DNA of 64,000 bases, taken from positions 26,221 through 90,220 of the IMG/VR virus record IMGVR_UViG_3300025110_000007; one strand, 5' to 3'. The notes beneath the pieces were generated by a model. That model was not told the DNA's origin. It was given only the letters and a program-made list of their open reading frames with translations, and ran no database searches. This document shows, one piece after another, positions 1,372-61,210 of this stretch; position 1 is the stretch's first letter; each line of letters begins with the position of its first letter. Made by a program: the position numbers and the translations under genes. The stretch is from a virus.

Positions 1372-1386
1372 GTACAGGCGTAGCCC

Positions 1387-2378: not shown

Positions 2379-2395
2379 GTGCAGGGACAGCGCGG

Positions 2396-2411: not shown

Positions 2412-2431
2412 TCCGGTTCATACGGCCCACC

Positions 2432-2530
2432 ATGGACCGCTCCGACAAGGTCCTACTCCCACTCGCATTATTGGTTGTCATCGGCTGGGTCATCGGTCTG
2501 GTCATGCATCACGCATGGCTTGAGAAATGA
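2432..2530 (+). CDS. Small 32-aa single-TM peptide (not in ORF track)
   Basis: Translated by hand: MDRSDKVLLPLALLVVIGWVIGLVMHHAWLEK*. AT-rich TATA-like tract about 25 nt upstream. Confidence 0.5.
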   Translation: MDRSDKVLLPLALLVVIGWVIGLVMHHAWLEK

Positions 2531-25331: not shown

Positions 25332-25337
25332 GCTTCA

Positions 25338-25873: not shown

Positions 25874-26090
25874 TCACTGTGTCGTTTGAGGTAGCCTCTT
25901 CTGAGGGGACCTCCGAAGCATCACCCTCTGGCTCCGAAGAGGCAGAGATGTGTTCTCCAAATGGGTTGTCTGAGGCTTTGCCAGCCTCTGGGTCGAATGT
26001 ATCTTTGAGAGGGGCCTTTTTCTTAGATGTTTTTGCCTTAACCACAACATCGCCTCGGGGGTGAAGTTGGGAAGGGGTCTTCATTGGCAT
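25836..26090 (-). CDS. Small hypothetical protein (basic N-terminus, acidic tail)
   Basis: GAGGCGA SD-like site upstream; fills the gap in the operon. Confidence 0.55.
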   Translation of the reverse strand: MPMKTPSQLHPRGDVVVKAKTSKKKAPLKDTFDPEAGKASDNPFGEHISASSEPEGDASEVPSEEATSNDTVSEYDDTQTGEET

Positions 26091-26099
26091 AGGCTCGCC

Positions 26100-36996: not shown

Positions 36997-39900
36997 TCAA
37001 GAGGTATGATACACGGCTTTCTCGTCTGTGAGTTCTAAATCGGGGCTCAGTGTGCCGTTTTCCTTGACTTCTTTTTTGTCTTCGGCCTCCTCCTTCTTAT
37101 CTCGCTCGACATCACGCACATCGTAATCGGGCATGGTTTTGTTATCGGTGATGTTCGTAGGGCCACTGGGTGACTCGATAGGTGTGGCGTAATCGATACC
37201 AAGTCCTTTCGTACCAGAATTAGATGCGCCCACTGCACCTACACCGCTCTTAGCGAGCAAACGCATGGCGACCTCAAGTCCCTTGACCATGACTGCTTTC
37301 TTTTTCCAGTCGGTACCTTTGACCTTCTTTGGTTCAATCAGCGGCTCGGCATCATCTTCTGATTCGTGAACCTCTGCCTTCTCTTCGATTTCCATGTTGG
37401 CTTTCAACAAGATACCAACGATTGGTGACCAGAATGGTCGCTGACTTTCAGAAAGCCGAATCAAATAACCGTTATCACTGCGTGGTGTATGAACAGACCA
37501 GCCTGCTTGTGTCTGTGTGGCTTTGTACAGAACAGACCCTTGTTCCATCTGAATGTGAACATTGCTTCCCTTTCTGAAAATTTCAACGCCGTGCTGGTAT
37601 GGTTCGGCCTTAGCCAAAATTCCAAGAGAATCACTGCTGACCAGAGGCTCGCCTTCCGCCTCACCTTCAATCTTGGATGCGTGTACAGTGAACAACTTCT
37701 GCTGTTCTGACGCCTGTGTTTCTGTGACATTGGTCACATCGACCTTCACCAAGTCACCGACATTGTATTTGTCTTCGCTTTCAAAAGCCGCTCCTACATC
37801 CATGTAGTCGTCACCTTCGTACTTGACTCTGCGGTCACCCAAGTCTTCACCGTGCGCAACAGGCCCGGTTCCAAGTCGGTATGTGTAAGGCCCGTCACCT
37901 CGGCGGTCAAGGACCATGAGTACAACTTCTGTACCGCTTTGCAACATGACCCACTTTGGATGACGAGGTTCGCCCTTCATGTAGGCTGACTTGGCGTCAC
38001 GCATGAGAATGCGGTCAGTGTCAAGAGCCTTGACTGCGGAAGCAAGTCCGTCGTCATCAGTGAGTTTTGTGTCGGATGCGCTTGGTACATGCACCATCTC
38101 ATGACTTTCCATGGCTCCACGGAGAATCTTGATGCGCTCTTGTACCGGCATTTCAAATGCGTTTTCGTCATCGTATTCTATGACATCGAAGATGTGCAAC
38201 ACATCCTTGCCACGAATGACATCGACAATGTATTGTTTGTCGCTCACCTTCTTGAAAGCGTCTTTCTCCTCTTCCGACAGGGTTGCCTTGGAGAAAATCT
38301 CACCTTCTTTGTGACCAACGAAAAACCGCTCACCTTCTGGGAATGCACTGACAATCCAGTCGCCAGTGAAACCACGCAAGTGCTCCAAGTCATCCAGTTC
38401 AAAGATACGGTGCATGGGCTGTAAAGACGGCAAGCCCTCTGGCATGTCCTTCCTGATGACATCAGGATTTGTGAGCGAGGCAAGAAGCGAAGGACCGTCC
38501 ATCTTGTTGTGAACTGAGGAGGCATCACTATTATGTGTTCGCCTTGAAGAATTGATTCGCATAGAATGAGGCATACTGTCCAGACTGTGAGCACCCTCGT
38601 GCACTGGACCGAATGCAGAATGATGTTCTGGTGGAGCAAGGGCCAGCACCGAGGGCAATGTCGGAGTAATCAATTGCATCTTTTCTGGGTTGTCCTTCTC
38701 GTACGCTGTCATTTCTCCTGTGGCATGGTCGATGTGAAGACCAAGTGGTACGGTGTGGTTGCGGCTACCCTCATGGTATCTGAGCGAAGGAGAATTGTAA
38801 ATGGCCATGGCGGCATTTGTGTCGTGGCTACCAAGCGGACCTATACTTTGTCGTTCTAACACATGGTCTTCTTGCATACTGTGAGTCTTTCGCTCGTGTT
38901 GTTCATCAACTGGTCGAGCAAGAAAGCCGTCGAGTGCAGAAAGATATTTGCTGACGATTCTCTTGTCATGCTTAGTTCGCTTATCAGACATAGTGTAAGA
39001 AGCAGGAGTGCCCAATTCTGGTTCACCTACATTTCTGCGGCGTTTGTTTTCTCTTTCAATGGATTGTCGAGAAAGCGGATGGTCTGAGGCAGGGAGAGGA
39101 TGGTAAGAAATAAAGTGGTCATCCATCGCTTGCTTATTGCCTACAAGCCCGAAAAACCTCGACATTGTTTGGAAAATTTTACTTCTTCGGTTATGTCTGT
39201 CTGTCCAACCTTCGTGTTGTGCATGAAGCGGGTGAATTTCTTTTCCAAACCTATGAGGGCCTAAAAGTTGAAGGTTTTCCAAGGGTACTTTGTCATTAGG
39301 GGTGTTTGGATAATGCGACCTATTGACAACTCCATCACTTGTCATGCGGAAACTCAATTCGTCTTTCAGATAAGTCGCCAGACTGTCACCGAACTTTTGA
39401 CCGTACACTTCATCCGACATTCCACCCATTCTTCGTATGGTTTCGTCGACTGGGCTGACGATAAATCTCCTGCCAATCTTGTTGTCTTCCTTATTTTTTC
39501 TCATAAGTTGCTTTTTGAGGCGCTTTGCATGCGCTATGATGCTGTCGTCAACCATGTTTGTACGAACCATCAACCCGTCCTCGTTCTCCATCATTTCTGT
39601 CAAGCCCAAATTTTCAAGCCATGTGCCCTCATCAACAGAAGGGTCCACTCTGTACTTTGCTGAGTGCAACATATTGACAAGTAAGTTCTCATGGGACACG
39701 CCTGCACCCGGATTTTTTTCTGCTCTTTGCCCAACAACGGGCATCATGGCCCCAATTTTGTGACTTCCATGTGGAGCAACATTGAGGAAGGTATTCCCTT
39801 GCATCATCAACCAAGCGACCGCTGTGTCAGGTCGTGGGTTTCCAAATTCATCCTTGAACATTTCAAAGGGGTCAAAACCTTGCTCACGACATTTCTGCAA

Positions 39901-42759
39901 GACATGCATAGCCGCTTGTTCAATAGCCTCAATGTGACTGTTGACTCTTGTTTGAAAATTACTTTCACTGTCCAGATGTGTATTACGAGATTTGATTTCT
40001 TTACCACGCTTGTCATAACGCTTTTGAAGTTCGTCCTCAGTCACAATACCAAGTTCGTTCTCAATGTTGAGCAAATCTTGCTCGTGATGGTGTATTTCCT
40101 CTTTCAATTCATTCATAGATTCGATTTGTACCGCATCAGGGTTAGGCAAATCTTGAAGTTCATGCAATTTTTCTCGGGCCTCATGAAGTTGGATTGACAC
40201 GGCATCGTGGTCATCATGACTATGTTGTTCAGATTCAGTTTCTTCAACTTCATCGACACTCTCAGGCAGTTCGCCTGATTGCCGTGCCTCAAGATAACGC
40301 TTGAGGCCAGCGAGGTCCCCTTCAACAAGCGATTCGCCTCCGTAAATCTCATCATGGCGTTGTCTTGCCAATTCTTTTTGCGTTTGAAGGCTTTGCAAGC
40401 CTTGTTCGACATTCCGAACTGTTGCCTCGGGAATAAGAGGGTTTGCCTTTACTTGTTGCAGAGAACTGAGGTACTGTTGAAGCAACTCTTCTTTCTCAAA
40501 AACGAACTCAGGACTACCCAAAGGAAGCGGTCCCGCTTCTTTTTTCATACGCTTTCTGTACAGCAACCGCTCATAATCTTCTCTTGACCCAGTACTAAAT
40601 TGAGCGGCAGGGGCATCGACTGGTATTTGCCGAGCATCGTGGGCTCTGACTGCTTGGGGGTTCGTCGAGGGCAAACCTGCCCCTATGACTGTGGCTATCT
40701 TGTGGTGAGGAAGTGCTCTTTGCTCTTCCTTGAATGCGGAAGTGTTTCTTTCAATGACACCTTTGCTGGCTCCCAAAAATGGATTGTGTGGCACATGCAG
40801 AGGTGCAAGCGATGAATTAAACCGTTTATTTTTGATTCGTTCTGCTGTTTTGATGTCACCCGCTGACATAGCATTGTTGAACAGAGTGTGTCCTTCATTA
40901 GCATGTAGTCCAGCGAATGTCGATTGTGTACGGGTGGTGTGGTTATTACCATGGCCTATGTTGAAAACAGGACCCGGATTAAGTCCTGTATGTATTGGAT
41001 TGGCTGGTTGAAAAATAAAGGTTTCAGGTCCAAATTTACCGAACCTCATAGGTTCAACTGCCCTATCAGGCATACCAAAACCAGACCGCAGACTATCTGT
41101 CCGAAGATAAGCATATCCACCTTGGTCGAACACAGGCCCTTTGAGAGATGCGATGTCGGTTTCATCAGGTCGGCTGTTGTCACCAAAGTGACTTGCTGTT
41201 TCACCTTCAACCAAATTCGTTGCATGCTCGATGTGTTTTCTGGTTTCATGAGCCTTGCCCATGCCACCTGTTTTCATGTGCGCCTGCGACCAATGATGGC
41301 TCAGTGATTCAGGCTCATTCATTGTGTACTCTTCTGCGTGTGCACCTTCACCTTCGTGCGCAACATGAGGCTGGGAGTGAAAGGCAAAAGCATTTCTTGC
41401 GGCATGGTCCTTGGTGAATTTACTTATTTCATCCTCAAACCTAAGCAAGTATTGTTTGATTTCATCTGGAGTCCAATCAACTGAATTAGGGTTCCACAGT
41501 TCCCCGTACAACGGATGCTGTCCTTGCTCATAGAACTTGTAAGAATCCCCTCTTCTCCGGGTTGAAGCAGGGTCAATACCTGCCGCTAAAAGCATATCAT
41601 TTCTTCCAAATCGAGTTGGGGCTGGACTCTTTGCTGTATTTCTTGGTCGCAATTGACCACCCGTTGGGAGATGATACCCGTGTTTGTGAGGTTGTTTGAA
41701 GTTAGCCCTTTCGGCGTTGTAATTAGTGAGGCGTTGGTGTAAATCAAAAGCCCGTTCTTTGAATTGCGAGAGGAAATACTCATTGTTGTATCTCAAATTA
41801 GGCGTCTTAATCAACTTTGCAAACACTGGGTTAGCGGCATAATTCGGGTGCCCTGTCCAATGTTGAAAGATGGGGGAATAACGCTGTACGAAATTACGCT
41901 TGGCTCGGGGTATGGAGTAATTCTCTAAACCCGGTATGGTTTGATGCTCAAGACTATCCATATCATTGTCGGCCATGTGCTGATACACTTGTACACGCTG
42001 TGCAGGCGTAAGCCATTCCATTCCGTACAAATAGTCCTCTTCACCCATACCTATGCGTCTTCCGCTCTCTTCGTCAATCTCGTCGCTTTGCCAACTCTTG
42101 ACGGCCTGCTTCATGTGTTCTTCTCGCAATGTTTTCTCAAGGGCTTCGCCTTTGGGGCTATTTAGAAAATCCAGTAAGCCCGGTTGTTTCTTCATCAATC
42201 CTTTGAGAAAATTGTAGTAATGAGCCTCATACAAATCGTGATTGCTCTGGTTTTGTGGCAACGCACCTAAACCATCAGGTTTTGTAATGTGTTGAGTGCC
42301 TTGATGCTCCTTTTCCCAAGCGTACTCTTTCTCTTTGTGCTTTTTGGAAACACCATCTGTGAAAAAGGATTCAAGCAGACGAACCCACATAGGTGCAATA
42401 TCGAGTTCTGGATGGGCCTCATGCAAGGGGTCAAAATCAAGCGGTGACACATCTGGAAAGTGCTCTGCGCCCGTACCACGAAGTTCTTCCTTACGACCGA
42501 TTGGAAGGTCGTTGAAGTTTTGAATGCGGTCTTTGGGCCAATGACTACCTCTGTGGACAGGGTCTTCCAAAGGCATTATTCGTTCTGCGTGAGGGTGGGC
42601 ACCCAGCATCGTTTGCTGAAAATCGCCCGGAGTTTCTGCCGCAGATGTTTCAGGTGGCTGACCGTCAAAAAGGGTATCTCTTTGTTCTTCTGTCTGACCA
42701 ACCGACACTGCTTGGTTAGCCTCATCTTCTGCATCTTTCAGCAGAATATCTTCGGACAA
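36997..42759 (-). CDS. 1920-aa head-module protein with degenerate ATP-dependent DNA ligase (NTase+OB) domain near C-terminus
   Basis: 'WIVSAFPEGERFF', 'HIFDVIEYDD..PVQERIKIL', 'ILMRDAKSAYMKGEPRHPKW' and an OB-like 'GDLVKVDV'; GGCGGTGA SD; TTG start. Confidence 0.75.
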   Translation of the reverse strand: MSEDILLKDAEDEANQAVSVGQTEEQRDTLFDGQPPETSAAETPGDFQQTMLGAHPHAERIMPLEDPVHRGSHWPKDRIQNFNDLPIGRKEELRGTGAEHFPDVSPLDFDPLHEAHPELDIAPMWVRLLESFFTDGVSKKHKEKEYAWEKEHQGTQHITKPDGLGALPQNQSNHDLYEAHYYNFLKGLMKKQPGLLDFLNSPKGEALEKTLREEHMKQAVKSWQSDEIDEESGRRIGMGEEDYLYGMEWLTPAQRVQVYQHMADNDMDSLEHQTIPGLENYSIPRAKRNFVQRYSPIFQHWTGHPNYAANPVFAKLIKTPNLRYNNEYFLSQFKERAFDLHQRLTNYNAERANFKQPHKHGYHLPTGGQLRPRNTAKSPAPTRFGRNDMLLAAGIDPASTRRRGDSYKFYEQGQHPLYGELWNPNSVDWTPDEIKQYLLRFEDEISKFTKDHAARNAFAFHSQPHVAHEGEGAHAEEYTMNEPESLSHHWSQAHMKTGGMGKAHETRKHIEHATNLVEGETASHFGDNSRPDETDIASLKGPVFDQGGYAYLRTDSLRSGFGMPDRAVEPMRFGKFGPETFIFQPANPIHTGLNPGPVFNIGHGNNHTTRTQSTFAGLHANEGHTLFNNAMSAGDIKTAERIKNKRFNSSLAPLHVPHNPFLGASKGVIERNTSAFKEEQRALPHHKIATVIGAGLPSTNPQAVRAHDARQIPVDAPAAQFSTGSREDYERLLYRKRMKKEAGPLPLGSPEFVFEKEELLQQYLSSLQQVKANPLIPEATVRNVEQGLQSLQTQKELARQRHDEIYGGESLVEGDLAGLKRYLEARQSGELPESVDEVEETESEQHSHDDHDAVSIQLHEAREKLHELQDLPNPDAVQIESMNELKEEIHHHEQDLLNIENELGIVTEDELQKRYDKRGKEIKSRNTHLDSESNFQTRVNSHIEAIEQAAMHVLQKCREQGFDPFEMFKDEFGNPRPDTAVAWLMMQGNTFLNVAPHGSHKIGAMMPVVGQRAEKNPGAGVSHENLLVNMLHSAKYRVDPSVDEGTWLENLGLTEMMENEDGLMVRTNMVDDSIIAHAKRLKKQLMRKNKEDNKIGRRFIVSPVDETIRRMGGMSDEVYGQKFGDSLATYLKDELSFRMTSDGVVNRSHYPNTPNDKVPLENLQLLGPHRFGKEIHPLHAQHEGWTDRHNRRSKIFQTMSRFFGLVGNKQAMDDHFISYHPLPASDHPLSRQSIERENKRRRNVGEPELGTPASYTMSDKRTKHDKRIVSKYLSALDGFLARPVDEQHERKTHSMQEDHVLERQSIGPLGSHDTNAAMAIYNSPSLRYHEGSRNHTVPLGLHIDHATGEMTAYEKDNPEKMQLITPTLPSVLALAPPEHHSAFGPVHEGAHSLDSMPHSMRINSSRRTHNSDASSVHNKMDGPSLLASLTNPDVIRKDMPEGLPSLQPMHRIFELDDLEHLRGFTGDWIVSAFPEGERFFVGHKEGEIFSKATLSEEEKDAFKKVSDKQYIVDVIRGKDVLHIFDVIEYDDENAFEMPVQERIKILRGAMESHEMVHVPSASDTKLTDDDGLASAVKALDTDRILMRDAKSAYMKGEPRHPKWVMLQSGTEVVLMVLDRRGDGPYTYRLGTGPVAHGEDLGDRRVKYEGDDYMDVGAAFESEDKYNVGDLVKVDVTNVTETQASEQQKLFTVHASKIEGEAEGEPLVSSDSLGILAKAEPYQHGVEIFRKGSNVHIQMEQGSVLYKATQTQAGWSVHTPRSDNGYLIRLSESQRPFWSPIVGILLKANMEIEEKAEVHESEDDAEPLIEPKKVKGTDWKKKAVMVKGLEVAMRLLAKSGVGAVGASNSGTKGLGIDYATPIESPSGPTNITDNKTMPDYDVRDVERDKKEEAEDKKEVKENGTLSPDLELTDEKAVYHTS

Positions 42760-43893: not shown

Positions 43894-45612
43894 TCAAAAA
43901 CCACTGGTACTGTCACGGGCTTGTTGAAGTGGTGAGGCGGGTGGGCCTCGTTGCTGAACACTTCCTATTGGTGAGCCTGAGCCCGCTGTTTGGAAGTTTT
44001 GAGGGCTGGCTGGTCCACGGTTGCGAAGACCTACACCTTGTCCTCCGGGGTTCATTGCGGCCATACCTGCATTCGCTTGTCCTGCCAACGCCCCTGCGAG
44101 TTGTGGAGGAATGTTTCGTGTAGGTAAGGCACCGGGCTGACCCATACCGCCCATTGGGGGGCCTCCGCCTTGAGGAGCGCCGGGTGGCATTTCCTGCTTC
44201 TTGTAGATGAATCGGATGTCACGGCCGCCCTCTTCAATGAGTTCAGCCTGATAACCAAGTTGAGCCATACGCTGTGCAATGTTGACTTCCATCTCATCAC
44301 GACGCAAGCGTGTGACTTCGTCTTCCTCTTCGTTGGGATAAAGCGTGAGTTTCCAATCGTGAACATCCATCTCTTCCATCAAACGAGGGAACAGGTTCTC
44401 AGTGTACACTTTGTGTCCGAACTCAACAGCACGGTTGGTGACAAGGACTTGAAGTCCTTCGTTGTTCAATCCGCCAGATTTACCAGTGTCCATCATGAAC
44501 ACATTGGACACACCATAGAAAGCGGCCAGACGAGTTCTCATCTCATCACGCACAGAGATGTATTGCATCTCTTCCAGCGTGTCCATGAACTTAACCCAAT
44601 TGACACCGCCTCGGCCACCTTGGCTTTCGACAGCAATCTTAGGAATGTAGTGCGGGTCACGCTCAAGTTTCTCATCAACGCCTTTCCAGAACGACTTCAT
44701 TGATTCAACATTGTCAGTCGTAATCGAAATAAGACCTCTTGGGACACGGCGTTTGGAATATGCAGTGTACATGTAATTGTCCATAGCCGTAAGTGTCATT
44801 GCCTGACGCCACAGTGTGGCAACAGGGCTACGGCCGTACAACTTTGAAGGCTGGTACTTGCTTACATGCAACACTTCGCCTTCCAAATAATACTGTGACT
44901 TACCTGCGCCTGCTGTGTTGACATGGTGAACATCTTCCAACTCATGGCCACATGTTTCACAATTCTTATCCTGTTCCGAATATCCTCGGACTTGGTCACG
45001 GTGGAGGGGGCACACCTTGTACCGTCCACCACGAACACCACGCTTGTCAGCAACAATACGCATGAAGATAGGGTCACCTCGCAGAAGTTCTTTGATTCTG
45101 TAAAATTGAACTTCGTTGGTTTCTGGGTCAACATAGTACTCTTTGACCATGATAAGGAACGCATCATCAACAATGTTGAGGTCGTACTCAATCTCACGCA
45201 GAACATCCATGAAACGCTGTTCCATTGAATTTCGTTGGTCGATAAGCCACTTAGGGTACACAAGATTGTTAGGGTCGGGTTTTGACAAATCCATGGATTC
45301 ACAATCAACACACTGTTCAACATCATGTTGGTGCTCTTTGTCACACACATTGCACTTCATGTGATACGCCTTCTCCCAATAGTAGCCTCTGCGGAAAATT
45401 TCCTGCTGGAGGGTTGTGATAACTGTGCGGAGAATGACATTTTCTGATGCTACTGAATACAAAGCGGGGATGGTGATGCCCTGTGCGATGACTGGCTCTT
45501 GAATACCGGTGGTCCACAGCGGCATCTGTGGCTCAGGGGTACGACGGCGTCGGAACCTCTCGGATAAATTACTCAATGCTGTACGGACTCTGCCTTTTTC
45601 TTCTGCCATCAT
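43894..45612 (-). CDS. Portal protein with two Zn-ribbon insertions
   Basis: 'EVLHVSKYQPSKLYGRSPV', 'EMQY..RDEMRTRLAAFYGVSNVFM'; CNVC..CVDC and CPLH..CETC inserts. Confidence 0.88.
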   Translation of the reverse strand: MMAEEKGRVRTALSNLSERFRRRRTPEPQMPLWTTGIQEPVIAQGITIPALYSVASENVILRTVITTLQQEIFRRGYYWEKAYHMKCNVCDKEHQHDVEQCVDCESMDLSKPDPNNLVYPKWLIDQRNSMEQRFMDVLREIEYDLNIVDDAFLIMVKEYYVDPETNEVQFYRIKELLRGDPIFMRIVADKRGVRGGRYKVCPLHRDQVRGYSEQDKNCETCGHELEDVHHVNTAGAGKSQYYLEGEVLHVSKYQPSKLYGRSPVATLWRQAMTLTAMDNYMYTAYSKRRVPRGLISITTDNVESMKSFWKGVDEKLERDPHYIPKIAVESQGGRGGVNWVKFMDTLEEMQYISVRDEMRTRLAAFYGVSNVFMMDTGKSGGLNNEGLQVLVTNRAVEFGHKVYTENLFPRLMEEMDVHDWKLTLYPNEEEDEVTRLRRDEMEVNIAQRMAQLGYQAELIEEGGRDIRFIYKKQEMPPGAPQGGGPPMGGMGQPGALPTRNIPPQLAGALAGQANAGMAAMNPGGQGVGLRNRGPASPQNFQTAGSGSPIGSVQQRGPPASPLQQARDSTSGF

Positions 45613-46922
45613 AGCACCTCTTTCCAACTCATGACTGTTTCTTTGTCAATGGTCCAGTCGCCCATTTTTTTATCGAGTTTTTCAGGGTCATCCTTCCAAT
45701 TCTCATGCTGAACAAACAACCGCAGTTGCTCCTTGTGAATAGAACTATCCTCTTCTAAGCACCGCAAAGCGGCTTTTGCTTGAAGTTCTTTCAATTGTAA
45801 GTGAGGAAGGACTCCGTTGAGTACTTTTCGCACATCGGCCTTGGACTGAAAGTTGAGTCTGTGTACCTTACGCTTGCTGTTTTTACCAACGGTTTCATCG
45901 AGGCTTAGAGTGCCACAGCCCAATGTTTTCTGCAAACGCTCACAGTGGTAGCGACCTCTGTCACCAGTGGCCACGGCTGATGCCCGTACTTCGCCACGCT
46001 TGGTGATGAAGATAGAACCATCAGCATCGAAGAAACCAGCGGCATAGGCCCATGGGTCTTTGACAATGATGCCGTCTGTGGACAAGACAACATATTCGCC
46101 CCTGCGAGGTGCCTTGATGATGTCGACTTCTTCACCGTACATGCTGAGGAGTTTGGACATGCGGTTAGAATCAACTCGGCTTGCTCCCTTCTCAATCATG
46201 TTTGATGTGATGTCACGGGCACGCATGTGTCCCTTTTCTGACAACTCTTGCTTGGCCATTTCAAGCCAGCCCTTCTGTTCCTTTGTGAGCGTGTCGATTT
46301 GATGAAGGCCACTGCGCCACATTTTCTTAGCGTCTTGCCGCTGTTCCATTGCTGTGACCCAAGCGTTTTGCTCTTCTGGTCCCCAAACATCTTCAAATTC
46401 ATCAAGCATCTTGAGAGCATCGTCAGCAGATTCCCAAAGCATACAGGCCCTGCGCAATGTGCTTTCTCTTGACTTACCAAAAAGCCGAAGCGATTTGAGA
46501 TTCCTGTCGCTCAAGCCAAGGTTTCGTATGGTATCATGATGATGATGTGCCCAAGGGACAGCGTCAAGTGTTTTCTGTACTTCTTTGGATTTGAGTTCTC
46601 TGACACTATCGATGGCTTTGTCGATGTCATCTTTCATATCTTTCATGTGCCTTCTGGCTCGCTTGAAATTCTTGACGACTTCTTCTGCTCCCTTGCCAAA
46701 GTGACTGATGAACCACGAGTCGCCATTGGCTGGGAAATCGTAGTTCTCAACAAAGATTTCAGGCTCAGGTTGAGGAAGAGTCTGCTTTGCGATGGTAATA
46801 GCATCGATTGGCTGGTGCTTTAGCAGAGGATGTGCTGTCAATGCTGATGCGACAAGGCTGGTCAATTCATCACCGACATCCAACTGATAATAGGATGAGC
46901 CGACTGACAGCGAAGACCACAT
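45609..46922 (-). CDS. Protein with C-terminal single LAGLIDADG domain preceded by a wHTH-like segment
   Basis: 'AYAAGFFDADGSIFI...LQKTLGCG...VLPHLQLKELQA'. Confidence 0.8.
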   Translation of the reverse strand: MWSSLSVGSSYYQLDVGDELTSLVASALTAHPLLKHQPIDAITIAKQTLPQPEPEIFVENYDFPANGDSWFISHFGKGAEEVVKNFKRARRHMKDMKDDIDKAIDSVRELKSKEVQKTLDAVPWAHHHHDTIRNLGLSDRNLKSLRLFGKSRESTLRRACMLWESADDALKMLDEFEDVWGPEEQNAWVTAMEQRQDAKKMWRSGLHQIDTLTKEQKGWLEMAKQELSEKGHMRARDITSNMIEKGASRVDSNRMSKLLSMYGEEVDIIKAPRRGEYVVLSTDGIIVKDPWAYAAGFFDADGSIFITKRGEVRASAVATGDRGRYHCERLQKTLGCGTLSLDETVGKNSKRKVHRLNFQSKADVRKVLNGVLPHLQLKELQAKAALRCLEEDSSIHKEQLRLFVQHENWKDDPEKLDKKMGDWTIDKETVMSWKEVL

Positions 46923-46973: not shown

Positions 46974-48479
46974 CTACGCAACAAAAATGTCATCTCCACC
47001 AAAAGTCGGGTTCGGCATGCTCGGGGCTCCGAGCATCCAAGAATCAAATCCGGGCATGTCGTCTTCCTCAAGCAACACAATGTTGCCACGGAATTCTTTG
47101 GTACCCCAGTTAGCAAGAGCGAGGCCCATAGCCAAGTCATCGTGAGAACCGACCGATTCTAATCGACCGGCATTGGTCATACCAAATCGACTGAGTTGGG
47201 TTTCTAACATACGGGTATGCTCCCTGCTCTTCTCGTCGCCCCAAGGTGTTTTGATTTGCCCTTGTTCAAGAGCAAGAAGCAACGACATGAACATGCTTTC
47301 CTTGCGCTGACGAGTGGTCATGAAGGTTTTGATTGGAATATCATCACGCATGTCTTTGAGTTCAGCCTCAAACATACGCTGGAAGTTGTTGCCTTCAAGT
47401 TCGATGAGGTCTGGTTGGAACCTGTTGTTGAGAAGGAGCATGCGCTTTTTCTGTGCCATACCTCCGAGTCCCTTTTCGTTGACCACATGCACGATTTGCT
47501 TGGTGTTGTCACCGGGGACGACACGCAGAACAACCATAGCGGTGTAGTCAGCGTTCTTGTCGGAAGCAATTGCAGGGTCCCAGCCAATGAAATGCTGACC
47601 GAAGATACCAGTGGACTCGCCGTTTTCATCGTACTCGTGCTCGGCATAGTCGAGCAGGGACAGGTTTTCGTCACGAGCGGACTCAAGCAACGACATTGGG
47701 AACATACTGGATGTATCGTGGATAGGTTCGCAGAGATACTCACGAGCGAACCTGATAGCAGGCATTGAGTTCTCACGCATCTTAAGTGCGTCTAAATCCC
47801 AACGCTCAGGCCAAAGGGCTTCGCCTTTGTCGTTGATAGCGGGGTATGTTTCGACTTGGAAGGTTTCTTTCTGTTCCAGTTCAGAGTACAGGTCATCGTA
47901 CGAAAACGGTGTACCGACCATCATCATGCGACCAGTGTGGTGCAGAACAGGGAGCAGGACAGTATAGAACCAGTCAGCGGCACGCTGGAGTTCGCCTGCG
48001 GTCGTACCCCAGAGAATATCGTCACAGACAACCACATCAGGGTGGAAACCACGAGTAGCACCACCAACGGACTTTGCCATCATACGGCTACCGTTGGTGA
48101 ACTCAAAGTAAGATTTAGCCCAAGGCTTGCCAGTAGGCTTGAGATGCTTGAGGATTTCAGTGCCCTCGATGTTGCCTCTAATGAAACGCATGTGTTCCAG
48201 CGTCTGTTCAAGAGAGTGTGAGAAAATCATGATGTGTGTCTTAGGTTGGAATGCGGCAATCCAAAGCGCATAGGACATGAAGAACACAGACTTGCCGTGG
48301 TCACGGGACGCTTTGACACAGTAGTACTTGTTGCCATTCAGTCCCTGTTCCCATGATTGGTGATGGTGGGAATAGTCGAAGCCGAGCATTTCTGTAAAGA
48401 AGTACTTGAACGACTTGGCTGACATCTCCCTGTCGATTTGAAGGACAAGGTCTTGCACGGCTCCCGGTTCGTCAGACAT
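46974..48479 (-). CDS. terL: Terminase large subunit
   Basis: Walker A ASRDHGKS, Walker B VVVCDD, GTP coupling motif, RNase H 'IGWDPA..DYTA' and 'HDDLAMGLALA'. Confidence 0.95.
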   Translation of the reverse strand: MSDEPGAVQDLVLQIDREMSAKSFKYFFTEMLGFDYSHHHQSWEQGLNGNKYYCVKASRDHGKSVFFMSYALWIAAFQPKTHIMIFSHSLEQTLEHMRFIRGNIEGTEILKHLKPTGKPWAKSYFEFTNGSRMMAKSVGGATRGFHPDVVVCDDILWGTTAGELQRAADWFYTVLLPVLHHTGRMMMVGTPFSYDDLYSELEQKETFQVETYPAINDKGEALWPERWDLDALKMRENSMPAIRFAREYLCEPIHDTSSMFPMSLLESARDENLSLLDYAEHEYDENGESTGIFGQHFIGWDPAIASDKNADYTAMVVLRVVPGDNTKQIVHVVNEKGLGGMAQKKRMLLLNNRFQPDLIELEGNNFQRMFEAELKDMRDDIPIKTFMTTRQRKESMFMSLLLALEQGQIKTPWGDEKSREHTRMLETQLSRFGMTNAGRLESVGSHDDLAMGLALANWGTKEFRGNIVLLEEDDMPGFDSWMLGAPSMPNPTFGGDDIFVA

Positions 48480-49434: not shown

Positions 49435-51527
49435 GCGTCCACGCTCCCGAATGTTGCCTTGATGACTTTGACTGTGCTGAGGTCGACTGACCAATCTTTG
49501 GCCACCCGCTCCCAGTCGCCTTGTGAGTGGTAAATGCCGTGAATGTCCATGTTAGCAAGGCTGAGTTGCTTAGCAATGACACCGACATGCGTTGAGTTGG
49601 AAAGAGAATAGGATTGGCTGGGCGTAATGGATTTGACAAAGGTGTCATTGACTGCGTCGTGCATCTGCACACGCTCCATGGTTTTGAGGAGGTCGCTGAC
49701 ATGTCGGTCGTTAGAAGTGGCAAACAAATTATCTTGTGCTTCTTTTAACCCTTGTTCATAGGAGTCTTGTTGTATCGACTGGTCAGGTCTATTCATAGCC
49801 TGTTGAAGTTGTGCATCAGCGGCCGCATGTGCGGCATCTGCCGTTTCTGATATTCTTGCACCTTTGGTGTGAATAAGTCCTCCCCAACCTTCACTCGGAA
49901 GGGAATGCTTAGCGTGGTCTGGGTGATTTCTGTGAGGTTCGACAAACATTTCTCCGGTTTCTCTGTGTTCTTCACCCGCATGTCCTTCTGTTTGTCTAAG
50001 TGCGTCTGCCAAATGCCGAACCTCTTCTTCGTGCTCGGGTGTAATTATGTGCTTGTGAGTCCCCCTGCCTCCACCGTACTGCCAGTCACTTTCTCTAAGT
50101 TCAGCAAAAGCCTGTTCGTTTGCTTCGTCTTTTGGAACTCCTTCTCTGACCTTGTTGAAAGCCATCATAAGAGGTATTGCCATAAGATGCCTTGCATGCG
50201 TCAAACGACCCTTTGTGGTCTTGCCACGAGTGCTGACCTGATTAAGCAGTTTTTTGTATTCATCACTTTCTGTATCAACGCCATGATGTGCGCCCAATGA
50301 TTGCATAGCCCTATGAAAGGGTCCATTGGAAACCCGGCCAATACTCATCAATCCATTCATGTAAATAGTGTGAGCCAGATTATCGAGGTTGTAAGGTTGA
50401 CCGTCTGGGAATTTTTCAGTGGGCTTTCCTACTGGTCTTATGCCCTTTGCTTTGAGTTCTCTTGCAAGATTTGCAGGCTTATTAGTGCCACCACCGGGGG
50501 TTGTATTGTAAGCGAACATACCCTGTGGCAACCAAGGCAAAGCATCCAACGGGTGGAAATTTTCGATAACGCCTGATTGTACTGAACCATCAACCATTTC
50601 ATGAGGAAGATGACCACTACCTTCAACGAATTCTTGGCCTTTACGCCTATTCATGGTTCGGATTTTCTGAAAAGTCATTATTTCCAAAGGAACCTTGATT
50701 GAGTTCATGTAAGACAATTTTCTGATGTCTGGTATGATGCTGGGGTCAACCGGCGGGGAACCAAAGAGTCCATCTCTTTCGATAGTGGCGTTGAAAAGTT
50801 CAGCCTGTCCTCTCGACTCTTCCCACATGTGATGCAGACCTGCATCAATCCAAGCACCTTTGTCCGAATGTTCCATGTCAACATTTCCTTGATTCAGTGA
50901 ATAGTTCAACAAAGGCAAAGTGCCATCTTCAAGCGGAGTTGCGCCACGAACCTGCCGCTCGTGTGCCTGCGAAACCTTGTCGTGGGGACCTATGTGGTTT
51001 CTTCGCCATTCTGCACTATTGATGTCAGGCAAATTAGTTCCGTATTTTTTGTTGTGTTTTCTAATTGCGTTAGAAAATATATTTTCGGCCACTAACATAC
51101 CCAGTTGTTTAGGATTCTTTCCTGCCAAACGCATATTCATTGACTTAAACATGTCACCATACTGGTTCCCCAAGTGACCAATCATCGCATCAAGAGGATG
51201 GGCCGTTTCTGGCCTACCCTGTGCTCGGCCTTTGTCCACATGCTCGCTAAGTTGACCTGTTTCAAAATCGTACCCAAACGGAGGATGATGGACATGGTTG
51301 CTACCGCTTTCATCTGCGTCGAACTGGTTATACCAACCGTGCAGAGGATGGGCAGGGTCTTGCGCTCCCGGCGGATTGTGCAAAAGGTCAGCAGGTCCCC
51401 AGTGACGGACAGGTGCATTTTTGTGATAGAGCCCAAACGACTTGCGAATAGGAGTAGGTTGATTGGTACTAAAACCAGCCCTGCGCTGACTCAGTTGCTC
51501 AGAAGAGTAGTGAATCTTGAACATCAA
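49431..51527 (-). CDS. His-rich hypothetical protein, putative internal virion protein
   Basis: 698-aa ORF coupled to both neighbours; PIRKSF and DLLKTM sites. Confidence 0.7.
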   Translation of the reverse strand: MMFKIHYSSEQLSQRRAGFSTNQPTPIRKSFGLYHKNAPVRHWGPADLLHNPPGAQDPAHPLHGWYNQFDADESGSNHVHHPPFGYDFETGQLSEHVDKGRAQGRPETAHPLDAMIGHLGNQYGDMFKSMNMRLAGKNPKQLGMLVAENIFSNAIRKHNKKYGTNLPDINSAEWRRNHIGPHDKVSQAHERQVRGATPLEDGTLPLLNYSLNQGNVDMEHSDKGAWIDAGLHHMWEESRGQAELFNATIERDGLFGSPPVDPSIIPDIRKLSYMNSIKVPLEIMTFQKIRTMNRRKGQEFVEGSGHLPHEMVDGSVQSGVIENFHPLDALPWLPQGMFAYNTTPGGGTNKPANLARELKAKGIRPVGKPTEKFPDGQPYNLDNLAHTIYMNGLMSIGRVSNGPFHRAMQSLGAHHGVDTESDEYKKLLNQVSTRGKTTKGRLTHARHLMAIPLMMAFNKVREGVPKDEANEQAFAELRESDWQYGGGRGTHKHIITPEHEEEVRHLADALRQTEGHAGEEHRETGEMFVEPHRNHPDHAKHSLPSEGWGGLIHTKGARISETADAAHAAADAQLQQAMNRPDQSIQQDSYEQGLKEAQDNLFATSNDRHVSDLLKTMERVQMHDAVNDTFVKSITPSQSYSLSNSTHVGVIAKQLSLANMDIHGIYHSQGDWERVAKDWSVDLSTVKVIKATFGSVDA

Positions 51528-52957
51528 GCGGTCCTCCCGCTACCTCGACTAACGAAAATATGACCGGACGCACCAGAGGACCTCATTTCATCGGCCTCTT
51601 TGTTGTCTGTGCCACCTTGTGGCTGAGTGGTTTCTCCGTCACGGTGACCCGCTTCGCCTTCCTTGGAACTGCCTTTGCCTGACGGTGGGGCTTTGTTTGT
51701 GCTGTCCTTGTTCTTGATAGCCCGCTTGAGGTCACGCAGAAGGTTGCGCAACTGGCTGATGTGCAGATAGTTCTCTGCGGACTTGAGGAGCATCCCCATG
51801 TCTTTGAGTTCAGACTTGGACAGTTCTCCTGCAAGTCGTGGCATTTTTCCTGCTCCCATAGGACCGGGAGCGACGGGTGTGCGCTGTTCGATGTTGTGAG
51901 TCTGATAGGGCATTGAGATGTTGCCTACATTTCTGCGAGCGGCACGCTGACCGAGGTTTTGTCGGTATTTACCGGGGAACAACTTGGATGGCTGTTTGGT
52001 TTTGTCACCCAAGTGAGACATTTCGACAGCCAATTCAGATTCAGTCAGGCCACCATGTTCAGTTCTTGGGCTCAAAGTGCGGGACTGTCGCTTGCTTCGC
52101 ATAGATGTAGCAAGGTCAGGTCGACGGCCGCCGGGTGGTCCTTGGAACACCGGGTTGTCGATGTCTTGTTGATTTCTTTTGAGCAACTGGTGAGCGATGT
52201 CGAGCGGCTCACTGCGAGTAAATCCTGTTGCAGGATTGAAAGGAATGCCTTGATTGGTGTAGGCAAAATCATCATCAAACGCCAAACCAACATCTCCTGC
52301 ACCGACAGTGCCTATGCCCTTACCAGTCACCACATTTGATTGGCGTTCATTTTGTCCGGGGTGAATCCTTTCGTCGATGTGCTTTCCTGTTCCCCCGCAA
52401 TGGTAGCAACTAACGGTTTGCGGAACTGTGATTGGTTCACCTGTCACTGGATGATATGTGTGTTGCATGCGTTCAATCATACCTTGCCCATTGCAAACAT
52501 CACAAATTTGGTCCTGCTTCAACAAACGGAACGCTAAGTCCATCGGCTCACCTGTGGCCAATGTATTCTGACCAAACGGTGACATGGCTTGAGCGCCAAC
52601 ACTGAAACCAACATCGGGGCTACCAGTTCCCACGGAACCGGTGATGTCACTAAGTTCCGCTTGATTCGCCATAGGCGTTTCTTCCATACCCTCCTCTTCC
52701 ATTTCTTCTGGTACAGGCATGTCTGGAGGCATTTCAGGTTCAGGTTCTTCAACGCTGACTTTGAGATGGGGATTGTCGCTGACTTTTGTTTCAGCATCCT
52801 TTTCTTGCATGCGCTTGTCTTTGAGTTCATCCACCTTCTCAGGAGAACCCTTGCCGTGCTTGTACGAATCTTCGTCATCAGCAGTGTACAGGTGGTCAGA
52901 CTCGGAGCGAGGAGAGTACATACGGGTGTCAGTTCCCGTTCCCATTCCTGCTGGCAT
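51524..52957 (-). CDS. Modular protein with two internal tags and a DnaJ-type Zn finger
   Basis: TGEPMDLAFRLLKQ followed by CDVCNGQG..CYHCGGTG; then SEPLDIAHQLLKR; also GMLLKSA. Confidence 0.75.
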   Translation of the reverse strand: MPAGMGTGTDTRMYSPRSESDHLYTADDEDSYKHGKGSPEKVDELKDKRMQEKDAETKVSDNPHLKVSVEEPEPEMPPDMPVPEEMEEEGMEETPMANQAELSDITGSVGTGSPDVGFSVGAQAMSPFGQNTLATGEPMDLAFRLLKQDQICDVCNGQGMIERMQHTYHPVTGEPITVPQTVSCYHCGGTGKHIDERIHPGQNERQSNVVTGKGIGTVGAGDVGLAFDDDFAYTNQGIPFNPATGFTRSEPLDIAHQLLKRNQQDIDNPVFQGPPGGRRPDLATSMRSKRQSRTLSPRTEHGGLTESELAVEMSHLGDKTKQPSKLFPGKYRQNLGQRAARRNVGNISMPYQTHNIEQRTPVAPGPMGAGKMPRLAGELSKSELKDMGMLLKSAENYLHISQLRNLLRDLKRAIKNKDSTNKAPPSGKGSSKEGEAGHRDGETTQPQGGTDNKEADEMRSSGASGHIFVSRGSGRTA

Positions 52958-58716: not shown

Positions 58717-58970
58717 TCGGAACACTCCTTTCCATGACTCATCTGGACATAAGCGTTGCTCACCATACGATACTGCTCCTGTGCTTCGACAAGGTCGGTG
58801 ATAAGATGGGGGTATTCGTCACACGCTTCTTCCAAAATATCAACAACGGAAGCGAGGTGCCTACGCAGTTCCAAAAATAATTTGGCCATGAGGATTCGGG
58901 GTATGCCCTCGTAGTCCTCCTTGTCCGCAGAAAATCCCCACTCGTCAAAGGGGTACTTGGTGGCCGTCAT
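58713..58970 (-). CDS. Hypothetical helical protein
   Basis: ATGA overlaps on both sides. Confidence 0.65.
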   Translation of the reverse strand: MTATKYPFDEWGFSADKEDYEGIPRILMAKLFLELRRHLASVVDILEEACDEYPHLITDLVEAQEQYRMVSNAYVQMSHGKECSE

Positions 58971-60238
58971 TTCTTGCCCTCCACAGCCCGATACATCGGT
59001 TTGACTGATTTGCCACGAGGAGCGTGTTGCTTGCCTTTCTTGTGAGCGGCTCGCTTCGTTTTGTTCTCCGTTGCTTTTTGCGAAGGCGACATGCTGTCAG
59101 CCACAGACTTGGGAGCATACCTGCCACGCTTGTGACGGGGCTTCTTCATCTCCTTCTTGTCGTCACCGACGAACTCCCACTTTTCTTTGGTCCACTCCGT
59201 GAGTGATTCTTGGCCTTTTGACTTAGCCTTGAGCAACCGCATAGCGATGTCCATTGGTTCGCCTGTTAATTTTCGTCGAGTATCTTCGTCAATATCAAAT
59301 TGCTGAGGTTGGCGAGGTTCATTGGTGATGTTCTGTTCACACGCAGTACAGTACATATTTTCATCTGCACCTTTAGGAAATTGTCTTATGCTTTGTGGGT
59401 CAACTATCGGCTGTAATCTTTCTCCGTGAAGTTGACAGTGTGTGTCAGGGCTATCATATACATTTTCAGTTCGCTCATTAAACACCTCCATGGCAATTTC
59501 TTGAGGTGTTTGTACCTTGTTGCCCTCTTCTTCTTGACCAGCCGCTATTTCATCCCAAGTGGATTGAGGAATACCAAACGCACCAAGCGGGTCGGGGTCA
59601 ACATAATTCTTCCAATTTGGGTCCTGCCAATATGGGTTATCCGGGTCATAAGGTGGGTCATTAGAACCTTTGAGCAACCGCATAGCGATGTCCATTGGTT
59701 CGCCTCTCTTGAAATCACTACCGCCAAGACCTGTGATATTGAGTCCTCTATTGGTTGGCCGACCATCCCACTCACGAGTATAGACAGTAGGTAATCTGTG
59801 CCTCAATGCAGGATGTTCACTTTCTATGATTTCCTGCGGTGCAATGGGATGCGCAGTTTGTTTCATACGACCATCCCTTGAGAAGCCCGTTCGGTAAGGG
59901 TCCAATATCTCCCCATCACCATGTACCACCGCTTTGTTTCCATACGGCATTGCGTTTTCAACATCATATTCTTGACGGTGTTGCTCATCACGGCTGTCAA
60001 AAACAGTCGCCCCTACCGCACCTTGATTGTCTTGCCCCGGATGATGCGTTGGTTCAATTGTTCCATCACCTTGACATGTTATGCAAGTAATGTAGTCGTA
60101 GTCTGTACCACCTTCTCCATCAAAGGGACCTTCATAAAAGCCGCCTTGGCCTCCGCATTGAGGACATTTGTAATCAAGAGTGTCTTCTTGTTTCAGCAAC
60201 CGCATAGCAATGTCCACTGGTTCAGTCACGGTAGCCAC
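58967..60238 (-). CDS. Three-module putative polyprotein (tag x3): DnaJ-type Zn finger, CxxH..CxxC module, DUF5872 C-half-like basic module
   Basis: EPVDIAMRLLKQ, GEPMDIAMRLLKG and GEPMDIAMRLLKA each start a different module. Confidence 0.8.
   Translation of the reverse strand: MATVTEPVDIAMRLLKQEDTLDYKCPQCGGQGGFYEGPFDGEGGTDYDYITCITCQGDGTIEPTHHPGQDNQGAVGATVFDSRDEQHRQEYDVENAMPYGNKAVVHGDGEILDPYRTGFSRDGRMKQTAHPIAPQEIIESEHPALRHRLPTVYTREWDGRPTNRGLNITGLGGSDFKRGEPMDIAMRLLKGSNDPPYDPDNPYWQDPNWKNYVDPDPLGAFGIPQSTWDEIAAGQEEEGNKVQTPQEIAMEVFNERTENVYDSPDTHCQLHGERLQPIVDPQSIRQFPKGADENMYCTACEQNITNEPRQPQQFDIDEDTRRKLTGEPMDIAMRLLKAKSKGQESLTEWTKEKWEFVGDDKKEMKKPRHKRGRYAPKSVADSMSPSQKATENKTKRAAHKKGKQHAPRGKSVKPMYRAVEGKK
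59229..60223. repeat. Dispersed tag-coding direct repeat, three copies
   Basis: TTGAGCAACCGCATAGCGATGTCCATTGGTTCGCCT is identical at 59229-59264 and 59670-59705; a 32-nt copy with 3 mismatches lies at 60192-60223. Confidence 0.9.
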
Positions 60239-60665
60239 CGCCAGCCTTCTTGTACTTTACAGCCACAAGTTGTGCTTTGCGAGCAGACCACTGACCGGGC
60301 TTGCCGCCCTTAGAGCCTGCTTTGACACGGGCGACGATTTTCTTTCGCATACCGGGCTTGGTGTAGTTGCCAGCGGCGTTGACTTTCTTGAGAACAGGCA
60401 CCATTTTGAGGGTGCCTCGCTCTTTGAAGTGGCGGGCTCTGTTCGTATGAGGGTCTTCTGCTACGAGTGTGTGGTCTTTGGTGTGACTCATGTCTGGCCC
60501 ACCTTTGCCATCGATGCCTCGCTGACGGCGCTCACGCTTGAGGTCGGTGTGGTACTTGACTCTGTCAGGGCTGGTTTCGTAATCAGTATCGTACTCAGAT
60601 TTGTGCCGCTTCGCTTCTGGACTCGTGGCGTGCTTGAGAACTTCCCAAAAGTCGTCGTTGACCAT
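60222..60665 (-). CDS. Tagged basic two-module protein; C-terminal module DUF5872 N-half-like
   Basis: DDFWEVLKHA; second module after PVLKK reads YTKPGMRK..GSKGGKPGQWSARKAQL..YKKAGGGY. Confidence 0.75.
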   Translation of the reverse strand: MVNDDFWEVLKHATSPEAKRHKSEYDTDYETSPDRVKYHTDLKRERRQRGIDGKGGPDMSHTKDHTLVAEDPHTNRARHFKERGTLKMVPVLKKVNAAGNYTKPGMRKKIVARVKAGSKGGKPGQWSARKAQLVAVKYKKAGGGYRD

Positions 60666-60669: not shown

Positions 60670-61038
60670 TCACTCTTGGTTTTCTCTTAGGCTCTCCATG
60701 CTCAAGTCAAGAGGCTCGGTATCTGGAAGTGGAACGCCGGGAAGACGGCCCGAAGGATGGGCAAGATTAGCAATTGGATTGTTCCGTACCATGCTTTCTG
60801 CACTGTCCGCCATGTAATTTGAGATTTTAGGGGCTTGTTGTGCTTGAAGTCGCTTGCGTGCTTCTGCGTTGGCCGCTTCAATCTCCGCTCGTTTTTGTTC
60901 TTCTGCTTGTTGTGCTATCAGATTTCTGATATTGGATTGGTACCTTGCGTTCCTTTCTTCGGACGGCATGTCATTAGTGATGTCATGCATGTCCCTCTTC
61001 AACAAAGCCCATGCGCTGTCAAACGGTTCATCGGCCAT
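60670..61038 (-). CDS. Tagged orphan protein
   Basis: Likely start MADEPFDSAWALLKR at 61038. Confidence 0.7.
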   Translation of the reverse strand: MADEPFDSAWALLKRDMHDITNDMPSEERNARYQSNIRNLIAQQAEEQKRAEIEAANAEARKRLQAQQAPKISNYMADSAESMVRNNPIANLAHPSGRLPGVPLPDTEPLDLSMESLRENQE

Positions 61039-61210
61039 GGTGCGGCTATGACCGCTCCGCTCATGAATCTTTCCACATGCACTCGCATTGAGGACAGTGC
61101 CAAGCAACACTTCTCAAACTGCCGCCCGCTTTGGAGTACAGACGGTGAGTAGGTTGTTGCTTACAAAGGGGACAGGGAGGACTTTTTGTTCGGCCCATGT
61201 GAATCACTGT

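Follow-up and report, generated by a model that had tools for sequence, protein, structure and literature searches.

We analysed a 64,000-nt stretch of viral DNA (the window), which covers positions 26,221 to 90,220 of the IMG/VR record IMGVR_UViG_3300025110_000007. A gene at 58967-60238 on its minus strand encodes a protein of 423 amino acids (aa), in which copies of a 12-residue peptide, the tag, delimit mutually unrelated modules. Comparison of aligned relatives showed that homologous recombination in the ~33-36-nt tag DNA, itself kept nearly identical, adds, deletes, reorders and exchanges such cassettes between genomes, with the reading frame kept, and we hold a role of the tag in this recombination to be highly probable. 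At the protein level, the best available mechanism is capsid targeting and cleavage by the tag, to which we give an even chance or slightly better. Taken together, we lean, by a little, towards a tag that serves in capsid targeting and cleavage and, at the DNA level, as a handle for recombination.

The cassette-array gene has a GTG start and 423 open codons. Its layout, tag-module 1-tag-module 2-tag-module 3, was read from the open reading frame (ORF) list, the translation and 24 homologues of varying content, with (E)P[VM]DIAMRLLK before each of the three modules. Tag 1 (TEPVDIAMRLLK, aa 5-16, DNA 60192-60227; all positions of the array are on the minus strand) is the N-terminal copy. It is followed by module 1 (aa 17-178, 59704-60190), with two CxxCxGxG-type zinc knuckles (CPQCGGQG...CITCQGDG) and a conserved HHPG...VENAMP...RDGRMKQT region; its C-terminal half is conserved. 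Tag 2 (GEPMDIAMRLLK, aa 179-190, 59670-59705) precedes module 2 (aa 191-325, 59264-59668), a CQLH...CTAC module without known family. Tag 3 (GEPMDIAMRLLK, aa 326-337, 59229-59264) precedes module 3 (aa 338-423, 58967-59227), a Lys/Arg-rich, basic terminal 'anchor' that matched phrog_14910 (E 2.5e-9). The modules fell into three separate BLASTP clusters.

A repeat search revealed one direct-repeat family with three copies. The copies at 59229-59264 and 59670-59705 were 100% identical over 36 nt, and that of tag 1 was 81% identical to the reference copy over 36 nt, with 3 mismatches in a 32-nt core (90.6%). An initial annotation, made from the letters of the window alone, had described three tags dividing the ORF into unrelated modules, with two 36-bp junctions identical and the third differing at 3 of 32 positions; translation, clustering, repeat search and alignment all agree with it. 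The identical 36-nt stretch spans 11 whole codons with all their wobble positions, the Lys wobble (AAA/AAG) being the sole difference between the copies. Given the codon usage of the window, the chance that two independent encodings of the 12 tag residues are codon-identical is ~1e-5. All three array tags use CGG, the rarest Arg codon (8%) in the long window ORFs.

Module content differed strongly among relatives (P0001-type labels stand for homologous proteins of the array, L001-type labels for related viral loci). The 24 homologous proteins measured 246-735 aa, and many of them were 84-100% identical over only 23-58% of the query. Nine related loci had the same flanks and different module content. 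The tag and basic tail occurred alone in L010, behind module 1 in L006 and P0005 (98% identical), behind module 2 in P0008, and behind both modules in swapped order, module 2 then module 1, in L001/L007 and P0003. An extra module stood between modules 1 and 2 in L004 and P0002 (99% identical), and foreign modules replaced those of the window in L011, P0004, P0006, P0007, P0009, P0014, P0016 and P0017. Other arrays (P0010, P0011, P0013, P0015, P0022-24, L005, L008) ended in another terminal module, which is the core of the product of the neighbouring gene at 60222-60665. When 30 array proteins were split at their tags and the pieces clustered, 32 module families (14 with at least two members) and 27 module orders were obtained, module 3 being terminal in 15 of the 30 proteins. 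This catalogue counts L001/L007 as P0003 and L004 as P0002, and it comprises arrays closer than L002, L003 and L012-L020, in which module 3 comes first. With such different strings of cassettes, in 27 orders, module content is far from invariant.

The ends of homology were located by blastn of eight related loci against the window; the tag repeats lie at 12-47, 534-569 and 975-1010 of the gene. All 18 homology block ends inside the gene fell at most 4 nt from the tag repeats, although these account for 8.5% of its length. In gene-relative positions, they were 571 / 536 (L004), 569 / 975 (L006), 32 / 979 (L010), 48, 538-1010, 16-569 and 975 (L001), 48 / 972 (L011), 16-573 (L005) and 16-570 (L008); L009 simply ran off its own contig. 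Breakpoints occurred in tag 2 (L004, L006, L001, L005, L008) and in tag 3 (L006, L010, L001, L011). Adjacent blocks overlapped by up to 36 nt inside the tag, a signature of exchange between repeats.

The tags themselves were chimeric. At the wobble level their ends follow the downstream module, always with CTG AAA before module 1, CTC AAA before module 2 and CTC AAG before the basic tail, and their first codons (ACT GAA CCA GTG or GGC GAA CCA ATG) go with the upstream sequence, which places the crossovers in the middle of the tag. Over 2310 nt upstream, locus L011 matched the window at 99.7% identity and yet held another cassette; turnover is therefore fast relative to point substitution. Cassettes were also more similar than the backbones around them. 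Between L004 and L114, one cassette matched at 90.1% along its 395 nt from tag to tag, with flanks at 69-73%, and in L130 it was 81% identical to the L004 copy, with flanks at 66-68%. Another reached 88.9% over 424 nt between L008 and L120, with flanks at ~71%.

The initial annotation had ascribed the insertion and shuffling of cassettes to recent duplication or recombination at the tag, and had suggested looking for module gain and loss across relatives. In that comparison, the variable content, the breakpoints in tag DNA, the chimeric tags and the cassettes more alike than their backbones uphold recombination. A recent duplication of the tag within the gene is not needed, because tag DNA is common to many genomes. 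The annotation had also supposed that the tag is a proteolytic linker, which would make the protein a true polyprotein; that half of its reading is taken up below as a putative role.

Could the shuffling stem from short-read mis-joins at the 36-nt repeats? Graph ambiguity is real at these sites: Logan contigs (k = 31) from four marine runs broke at all three tags, with many continuations, and their summed depth peaked in the tag bins; the tag is thus present in several copies, at which graphs built with a short k become ambiguous. This evidence counts joints with at least 36 nt on each side and, in some runs, only the covered parts of the stretch. Against mis-joins, the variants came from many projects and assemblers, they held modules absent from this genome and differed in divergence, and a 36-nt repeat is shorter than a read. 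In addition, a 1093-nt contig from a 2025 seawater run joined 59672 to 60195, skipping exactly 522 nt (tag 1 to tag 2), and this joint is unambiguous, since tags 1 and 2 differ in sequence. An assembly artefact is unlikely, and we give it a very slim chance.

Identical tag DNA might also arise from selection on codons, for example of the rare CGG as a translational pause, with the tags being mere domain linkers and recombination playing no part. Back-translated EPMDIAMRLLK matched IMG/VR contigs exactly at 40 places, spread over 36 stretches and always inside long ORFs. Codon choice in these copies was strongly skewed, although the copies are not independent and their counts only descriptive: the Arg codon was CGG in 25, CGC in 11 and AGR in none. 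TTG was used in 35/40 (28% in the window), CCA in 31/40 (29% in the window), and the Ala codon was GCT in 27, GCC in 13 and GCA in 0/40, against a GCA usage of 37% in the window. RNA folding of the three array tags gave no significant hairpin (z 0.39, -0.91, 0.17); a hairpin does not explain the conservation, which leaves room for another constraint on the nucleotides. However, a second tag-delimited polyprotein of 477 aa, at 51524-52957 on the minus strand, has two internal tags, GEPMDLAFRLLK (52517-52552) and SEPLDIAHQLLK (52178-52213), that are nearly the same peptide as the array tags and are written in other codons, so the peptide does not force the DNA. Chimeric tags, block ends inside the tag and cassettes more similar than backbones point to crossovers as well, and codon selection without recombination appears quite improbable.

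The two tags of the second polyprotein flank a zinc-knuckle module. The protein gave a weak DnaJ_CXXCXGXG match and was weakly similar to module 1 (E 6e-4). A second tag DNA family (…GAC TTR GCG TTC CGT TTG TTG AAG, DLAFRLLK) was common to 51524-52957 and a cassette inserted in another gene of a related locus (L001:2079-2960). The tags thus seem to fall into at least two families by their DNA, which may form separate exchange pools.

The tags that bound the cassettes have the consensus [GST]-E-P-hydrophobic-D-I-A-[MFW]-[RQ]-L-L-K. A regular-expression scan of the whole record in six frames recovered 13 convincing tags, all inside the window and all on the late strand, that is, the minus strand, which carries every long gene of the window. 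The 26-kb replication part had a single match, which is without the Pro and Asp and looks like chance. Eight of the 13 tags come after the start codon, as M-x-P-x-D-x-A-W-x-L-L-K, in ORFs that are otherwise unrelated; these ORFs, with PxDxAWxLLK-type tags, start at 63403, 62372, 61032, 58713, 6435, 6235, 5921 and 1368, all on the minus strand. The other five are internal, three in the array gene and two in the ORF at 51524-52957, and have [GS]-E-P in front and M, F or H instead of W. A 23-position PHROG profile, phrog_9713, matched the tag itself.

Several units stand alone in this genome and are fused in others. A stand-alone tagged basic protein at 5918-6235 (minus strand) consists of MNPMDEAWAVLK and a DUF6321 domain (E 1.2e-17), and in L002 the DUF6321 unit (E 1.3e-15) is fused behind module 3 through a tag. 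A stand-alone tagged protein of 146 aa at 60670-61110 (minus strand; ORF translation), beginning with MADEPFDSAWALLK, has an orthologue of 293 aa in L001, with an extra module and the internal tag GESMDLAFRLLK. The SPEAKRHK module, described below, is another such unit, and module 3 occurs alone behind one tag in L010. The presence of the tag on stand-alone and fused forms of the same units suggests that the units act separately.

The SPEAKRHK module belongs to the upstream neighbour of the array gene, a 147-aa protein at 60222-60665 (minus strand) with matches to phrog_6437 and phrog_17747 and a degenerate N-terminal tag, DDFWEVLK. Its gene overlaps the start of the array gene by 17 nt (60222-60238) in a different frame, and its core, SPEAKRHK...NRARHFKERGTL, is the alternative terminal module mentioned above. 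Pfam did not support the idea that module 3 and the neighbour's C-terminus are two halves of a DUF5872-like protein, with no such match even at E <= 5.

Beyond this genome, the longest tagged ORFs from the back-translated search were those of L108 (7 tags in 1205 aa) and L125 (6 tags in 1029 aa). Searched at E <= 0.1, a profile built from 47 tag windows gave 6, 16, 7 and 4 matches in this record and three complete relatives of 107-116 kb. The ±10-kb loci around 80 genes for the major capsid protein (MCP) were almost tag-free, with 4 weak regular-expression matches, and the tags lay elsewhere in the genome. In the relative G002 (108,650 bp, CheckV 100%), a 1205-aa frame with at least 8 tag matches was open from the first bases (1-3700), and a 360-aa tagged frame at 107500-108650 reached the last bases; the polyprotein may continue across the contig ends to more than 1500 aa. 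The exact tag pattern had no match in 185,579 prokaryote species genomes. Loosened, it had 6, of which one looked genuine (L143). This 8.8-kb contig, binned in a Maricaulis metagenome-assembled genome, carries the tag and homologues of the membrane/GTPase operon of the window and is, by its gene content, probably a mis-binned magrovirus-like contig.

In some arrays, just 2-4 residues (NG, HG, RG) separated the last tag from the stop codon (P0018, P0019, P0029, and L143 at 3-134), and in L143 no frame continued after the C-terminal tag. Judging from these endings, the tag may also work, or at least persists, at the extreme C-terminus. A search of viral contigs with P0018 found no related loci.

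The conserved ...GGC GAA CCA ATG... puts an ATG in each internal tag of the array, and each tag could in principle hold an internal ribosome-binding site from which its module is translated separately, as an 'operon inside an ORF'. In other tags the ATG position is V, L, I, F or T. Separate translation also needs no stop-free frame, yet arrays of up to 1205 aa with 7 tags stay open, and we consider internal starts extremely unlikely.

The modules gave few hints of function. Pfam found 0 families on the array protein and its neighbours. Relatives of module 1 had weak DnaJ_CXXCXGXG and Anti-TRAP matches below the cut-off, and a search of 1.84 billion representatives found no more than 7 clusters for its family, too few for a deep alignment and including a junk repeat protein (P0031). 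For module 2, the best score of an ESM Atlas search was an uninformative 0.81. The internal cassettes of more than 20 array proteins gave only weak, sub-cut-off zinc-knuckle matches in Pfam, NCBIfam and PHROGs. PHROG family matches among the modules were confined to the two terminal ones (14910 and 6437), the former being found in marine bacteriophages too. As nearly all internal cassettes are without a family match, calling them cargo or effectors is a guess from context. An AlphaFold2 model of the 423-aa ORF (19-row alignment) had a mean pLDDT of 39.5 and a pTM of 0.18, and was unusable for fold or domain independence.

The case for a putative cleavage comes from the head genes. The HK97-type MCP, encoded at 34376-35560 (minus strand), has GSELLK/AD at aa 29-36 (the slash marks the expected cut, here after aa 34). 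This motif was invariant in the 78/78 loci with an N-terminus, of 80, with the preceding four residues varying, and it aligned with ...GGMSK/AD of HVTV-1. The prohead protease, encoded at 35574-36968 (minus strand), was recognized by Pfam and PHROG. Its Peptidase_S78 domain (PF04586, aa 28-180) scored E 2.9e-10 and 41 bits, against a cut-off of 21; it also matched S78_2 and was a head maturation protease by PHROG. The domain is followed by a tail of ~290 aa, acidic, coiled and scaffold-like in appearance. At aa 22 (SISILK/S), 66/66 relatives had a motif of the type hydrophobic-x-hydrophobic-hydrophobic-K/small in variable surroundings, and at aa 175 (FRILK/ED), F[RS]ILK/ED lies exactly at the end of the S78 domain; in an alignment of 25 sequences, K22 and F171-D177 did not vary. 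MCP and protease thus share, at three expected maturation sites, the [LI]-L-K with which the tag ends. In HK97, the type virus for this kind of protease system, the capsid protein is cut at K103/S104 (PMC10275583).

We infer cleavage because the LLK of the tag matches the conserved motif at expected maturation sites in the MCP and the S78 protease. Targeting and cleavage are further suggested by the motif at the head of at least eight unrelated stand-alone ORFs, all on the late strand and outside the 26-kb replication part, and by the strongly basic character of several tagged proteins, a trait of T4 internal proteins too. In the mechanism we propose, the tag would form a short amphipathic helix, whose PxDxA[WMF] part docks the protein in the procapsid during assembly. 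The S78 prohead protease, as the candidate enzyme, would cut after the final Lys (LLK/), and the array would be released as separate internal virion proteins. These might enter the next host cell together with the DNA, in the manner of T4 internal proteins. The basic terminal modules may bind DNA, and the variable orphan cassettes may be accessory or host-directed cargo.

Several points weigh against this mechanism or reduce the force of the evidence for it. The 40 tag copies are non-independent samples, and the relatives compared are close (MCP 76-100%, protease 62-97%), which limits the weight of invariance. The residue after LLK was unconstrained across 73 tag contexts and the MCP holds another VLK inside its fold, so LLK alone is a weak site definition. 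LLK cuts would leave the tag at the C-terminus of internal modules, and cuts in the arrays that end in tag plus 2-4 residues would free almost nothing. The AlphaFold model, with its mean pLDDT of 39.5, is too unreliable to speak for separate folding of the modules. In HVTV-1, a cultured relative, the 41-kb structural region had no such tags, and no proteomics can therefore be transferred from it. A complex prediction of MCP, protease-scaffold and a 40-aa tag window scored 0.00 and, run without controls, weighs neither way.

Part of this would suit a tag that is only a docking or oligomerisation helix, with the protein staying intact as beads on a string whose tags bind a common partner, be it the capsid interior, a scaffold, a chaperonin or each other. 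The arrays that end in tag plus 2-4 residues fit a docking role better than a linker role. Tags at N-termini, inside proteins and at extreme C-termini are position-independent, as a binding peptide would be; the free choice of residue after LLK fits too, and tags were modelled as helices, with low confidence. Docking alone leaves aside the match of [LI]LK to conserved motifs exactly at the expected maturation cuts of MCP and protease, and units encoded singly in one genome but joined in another suggest separate action. We therefore consider pure docking a minority explanation, though one with some substance.

Alternatively, the array may be a true polyprotein that co-expresses accessory proteins and is cut by another protease, host or viral, in a process unrelated to the capsid. 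One long ORF is kept through all module orders, and the place of the tagged proteins in virions is only a predicted one. However, Pfam found no second protease among the tagged ORFs tested, the tags are confined to the strand and regions of structural genes, and their motif is common to the MCP and S78 protease sites; a different protease seems improbable. Capsid targeting with cleavage by the S78 protease remains the reading that we favour.

Going one step further, one 33-36-nt sequence may serve as recombination site, capsid-loading peptide and protease site, a 'protein-level integron', for which we see a reasonable chance, though one short of even. If so, any gene fragment could be plugged in frame, packaged, cut free and delivered to the next host, and viruses of a globally abundant group would trade orphan effector cassettes horizontally, from a common pool marked by the tag. 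Among traits of integrons or of Rhs/CdiA systems, no Pfam family was found on the array protein or its neighbours and no hairpin in the tags; recombinase genes were not searched genome-wide.

The window is the right-hand 64 kb of a record of 90,220 bp with a CheckV completeness of 85%. Its late genes include, by annotation of the window ORFs, the terminase large subunit (46974-48479) and the portal (43894-45627), both on the minus strand. In a phage collection, the MCP found its matches among haloarchaeal siphoviruses (HCTV-5, HVTV-1 and HCTV-1, at 32-35% identity) and little else. A full-length thermosome-type chaperonin gene (Cpn60_TCP1, E 1.2e-135) lies at positions 25185-26624 of the record, its end forming 1-404 of the window on the plus strand, opposite to the late genes. 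All 24 of the 24 sequencing runs holding the region were marine or seawater metagenomes. Magroviruses are characterized in PMC5434244 by an MCP ~33% identical to haloarchaeal siphovirus MCPs only, a marine origin, a chaperonin gene and a genome of 65-100 kb. They have been assigned to Marine Group II / Poseidoniales archaea, with an uncultured host (Philosof et al. 2017, PMC5434244). As its MCP kinship, thermosome and marine runs match features given there, the virus is treated here as a magrovirus-like tailed archaeal virus, assigned by gene features and not by a tree.

Three further ORFs of the minus strand stood out. A 1920-aa protein between portal and protease (36997-42759) had a weak match to an ATP-dependent DNA ligase domain (E 3e-4, below the cut-off) and occupies the place of the very large HVTV-1 proteins (genes 113 and 115). 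A single 5168-aa ORF (6447-21953) lies downstream of the tail genes, directly followed by three small tagged ORFs (6435, 6235, 5921). An HMGL-like gene (HMG-CoA lyase family) at 1387-2256 was above the Pfam cut-off (E 7.1e-17).

Magroviruses are among the most abundant archaeal viruses of the surface ocean, and their accessory genes are nearly all unannotated according to PMC5434244. A literal motif search of the literature and a word search of PMC5434244, PMC11706807, PMC10160649 and PMC8651126 found no description of the tag or the polyproteins in magroviruses; supplementary tables, such as Table S13 of PMC11706807, were not covered and may list the ORFs. The tag offers a sequence handle for a whole class of magrovirus proteins, with 4-16 internal tags per complete genome and polyproteins of up to at least 1205 aa, and would also predict where tagged proteins go and how they are released. 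DNA viruses rarely change their gene content by in-frame movement of domain-sized cassettes through a short conserved coding site, and here its turnover is visible between genomes 99.7% identical in flank. If the targeting is true, the tag would be a ready tool for loading foreign proteins into archaeal virus capsids, and the cassettes would supply a list of candidate effectors that the virus delivers against a host not yet in culture.

The combination of traits recalls several known systems. RNA virus polyproteins and cyanobactin precursors make several products from one ORF by means of repeated recognition sequences, which in cyanobactins are conserved at the DNA level while the cores vary. 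The gene studied here likewise unites unrelated modules in a single ORF, modules that are found as genes of their own as well, with cassettes gained, lost and exchanged at a conserved boundary. It differs in belonging to a dsDNA tailed virus, with modules of 60-300 aa and a cassette number and order that vary between near-identical genomes. Encapsulin cargo-loading peptides direct diverse cargo into a shell with the HK97 fold, and the shell protein here is HK97-type too; encapsulin tags are not known to be cleavage sites or repeated linkers, and capsid binding is putative here.

In the polymorphic toxins Rhs and CdiA, a short motif parts the constant region from the variable domains and marks where these are swapped by homologous recombination; in Rhs, the motif is a self-cleavage site too. 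One motif would similarly be cleavage site and recombination boundary in our array, cleavage being predicted. Those proteins are secreted toxins of bacteria, each with a single variable domain at the C-terminus, and their orphan cassettes lie apart, whereas here several cassettes stand in series in a viral gene. A Pfam search of the array protein and its neighbours (0 families) gave neither an Rhs/YD nor a CdiA domain.

The prohead protease of the giant phages phiKZ and SPN3US is of a different family from the one here. These phages have many head proteins with propeptides that are cut by the prohead protease at a short motif, some of them at several places (PMC5694885, PMC7411985, PMC10052503). 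Their cleavage sites are short motifs that lack a conserved helix of 12 residues, and the abstracts of these sources mention neither a repeat at the DNA level nor an exchange of cassettes at the sites.

The closest parallel is with T4-type internal proteins, from which the prohead protease of T4 removes the capsid-targeting sequence (CTS); in T-even phages, the DNA coding for the CTS also serves recombination. T-even internal proteins are described in PMC3012670 as diverse defence proteins sharing only the conserved CTS, which places them in the scaffolding core. As with the CTS, a short conserved peptide was found here on unrelated, fast-evolving small proteins, some of them very basic, and it ends in a short putative protease motif; it stands at the N-terminus of several unrelated small ORFs, which are candidate virion proteins. 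Unlike the CTS, the tag is also repeated inside long ORFs and at C-termini, where it bounds in-frame cassettes. The host here is archaeal, encapsidation and cleavage are putative, and the protease is a Peptidase_S78 (HK97-like) and not of the gp21 family of T4, so that the system resembles the CTS system without being a member of it. By analogy, the tag appears to work like a variant of T4-type internal-protein tagging, in which the same peptide also joins cassettes into arrays.

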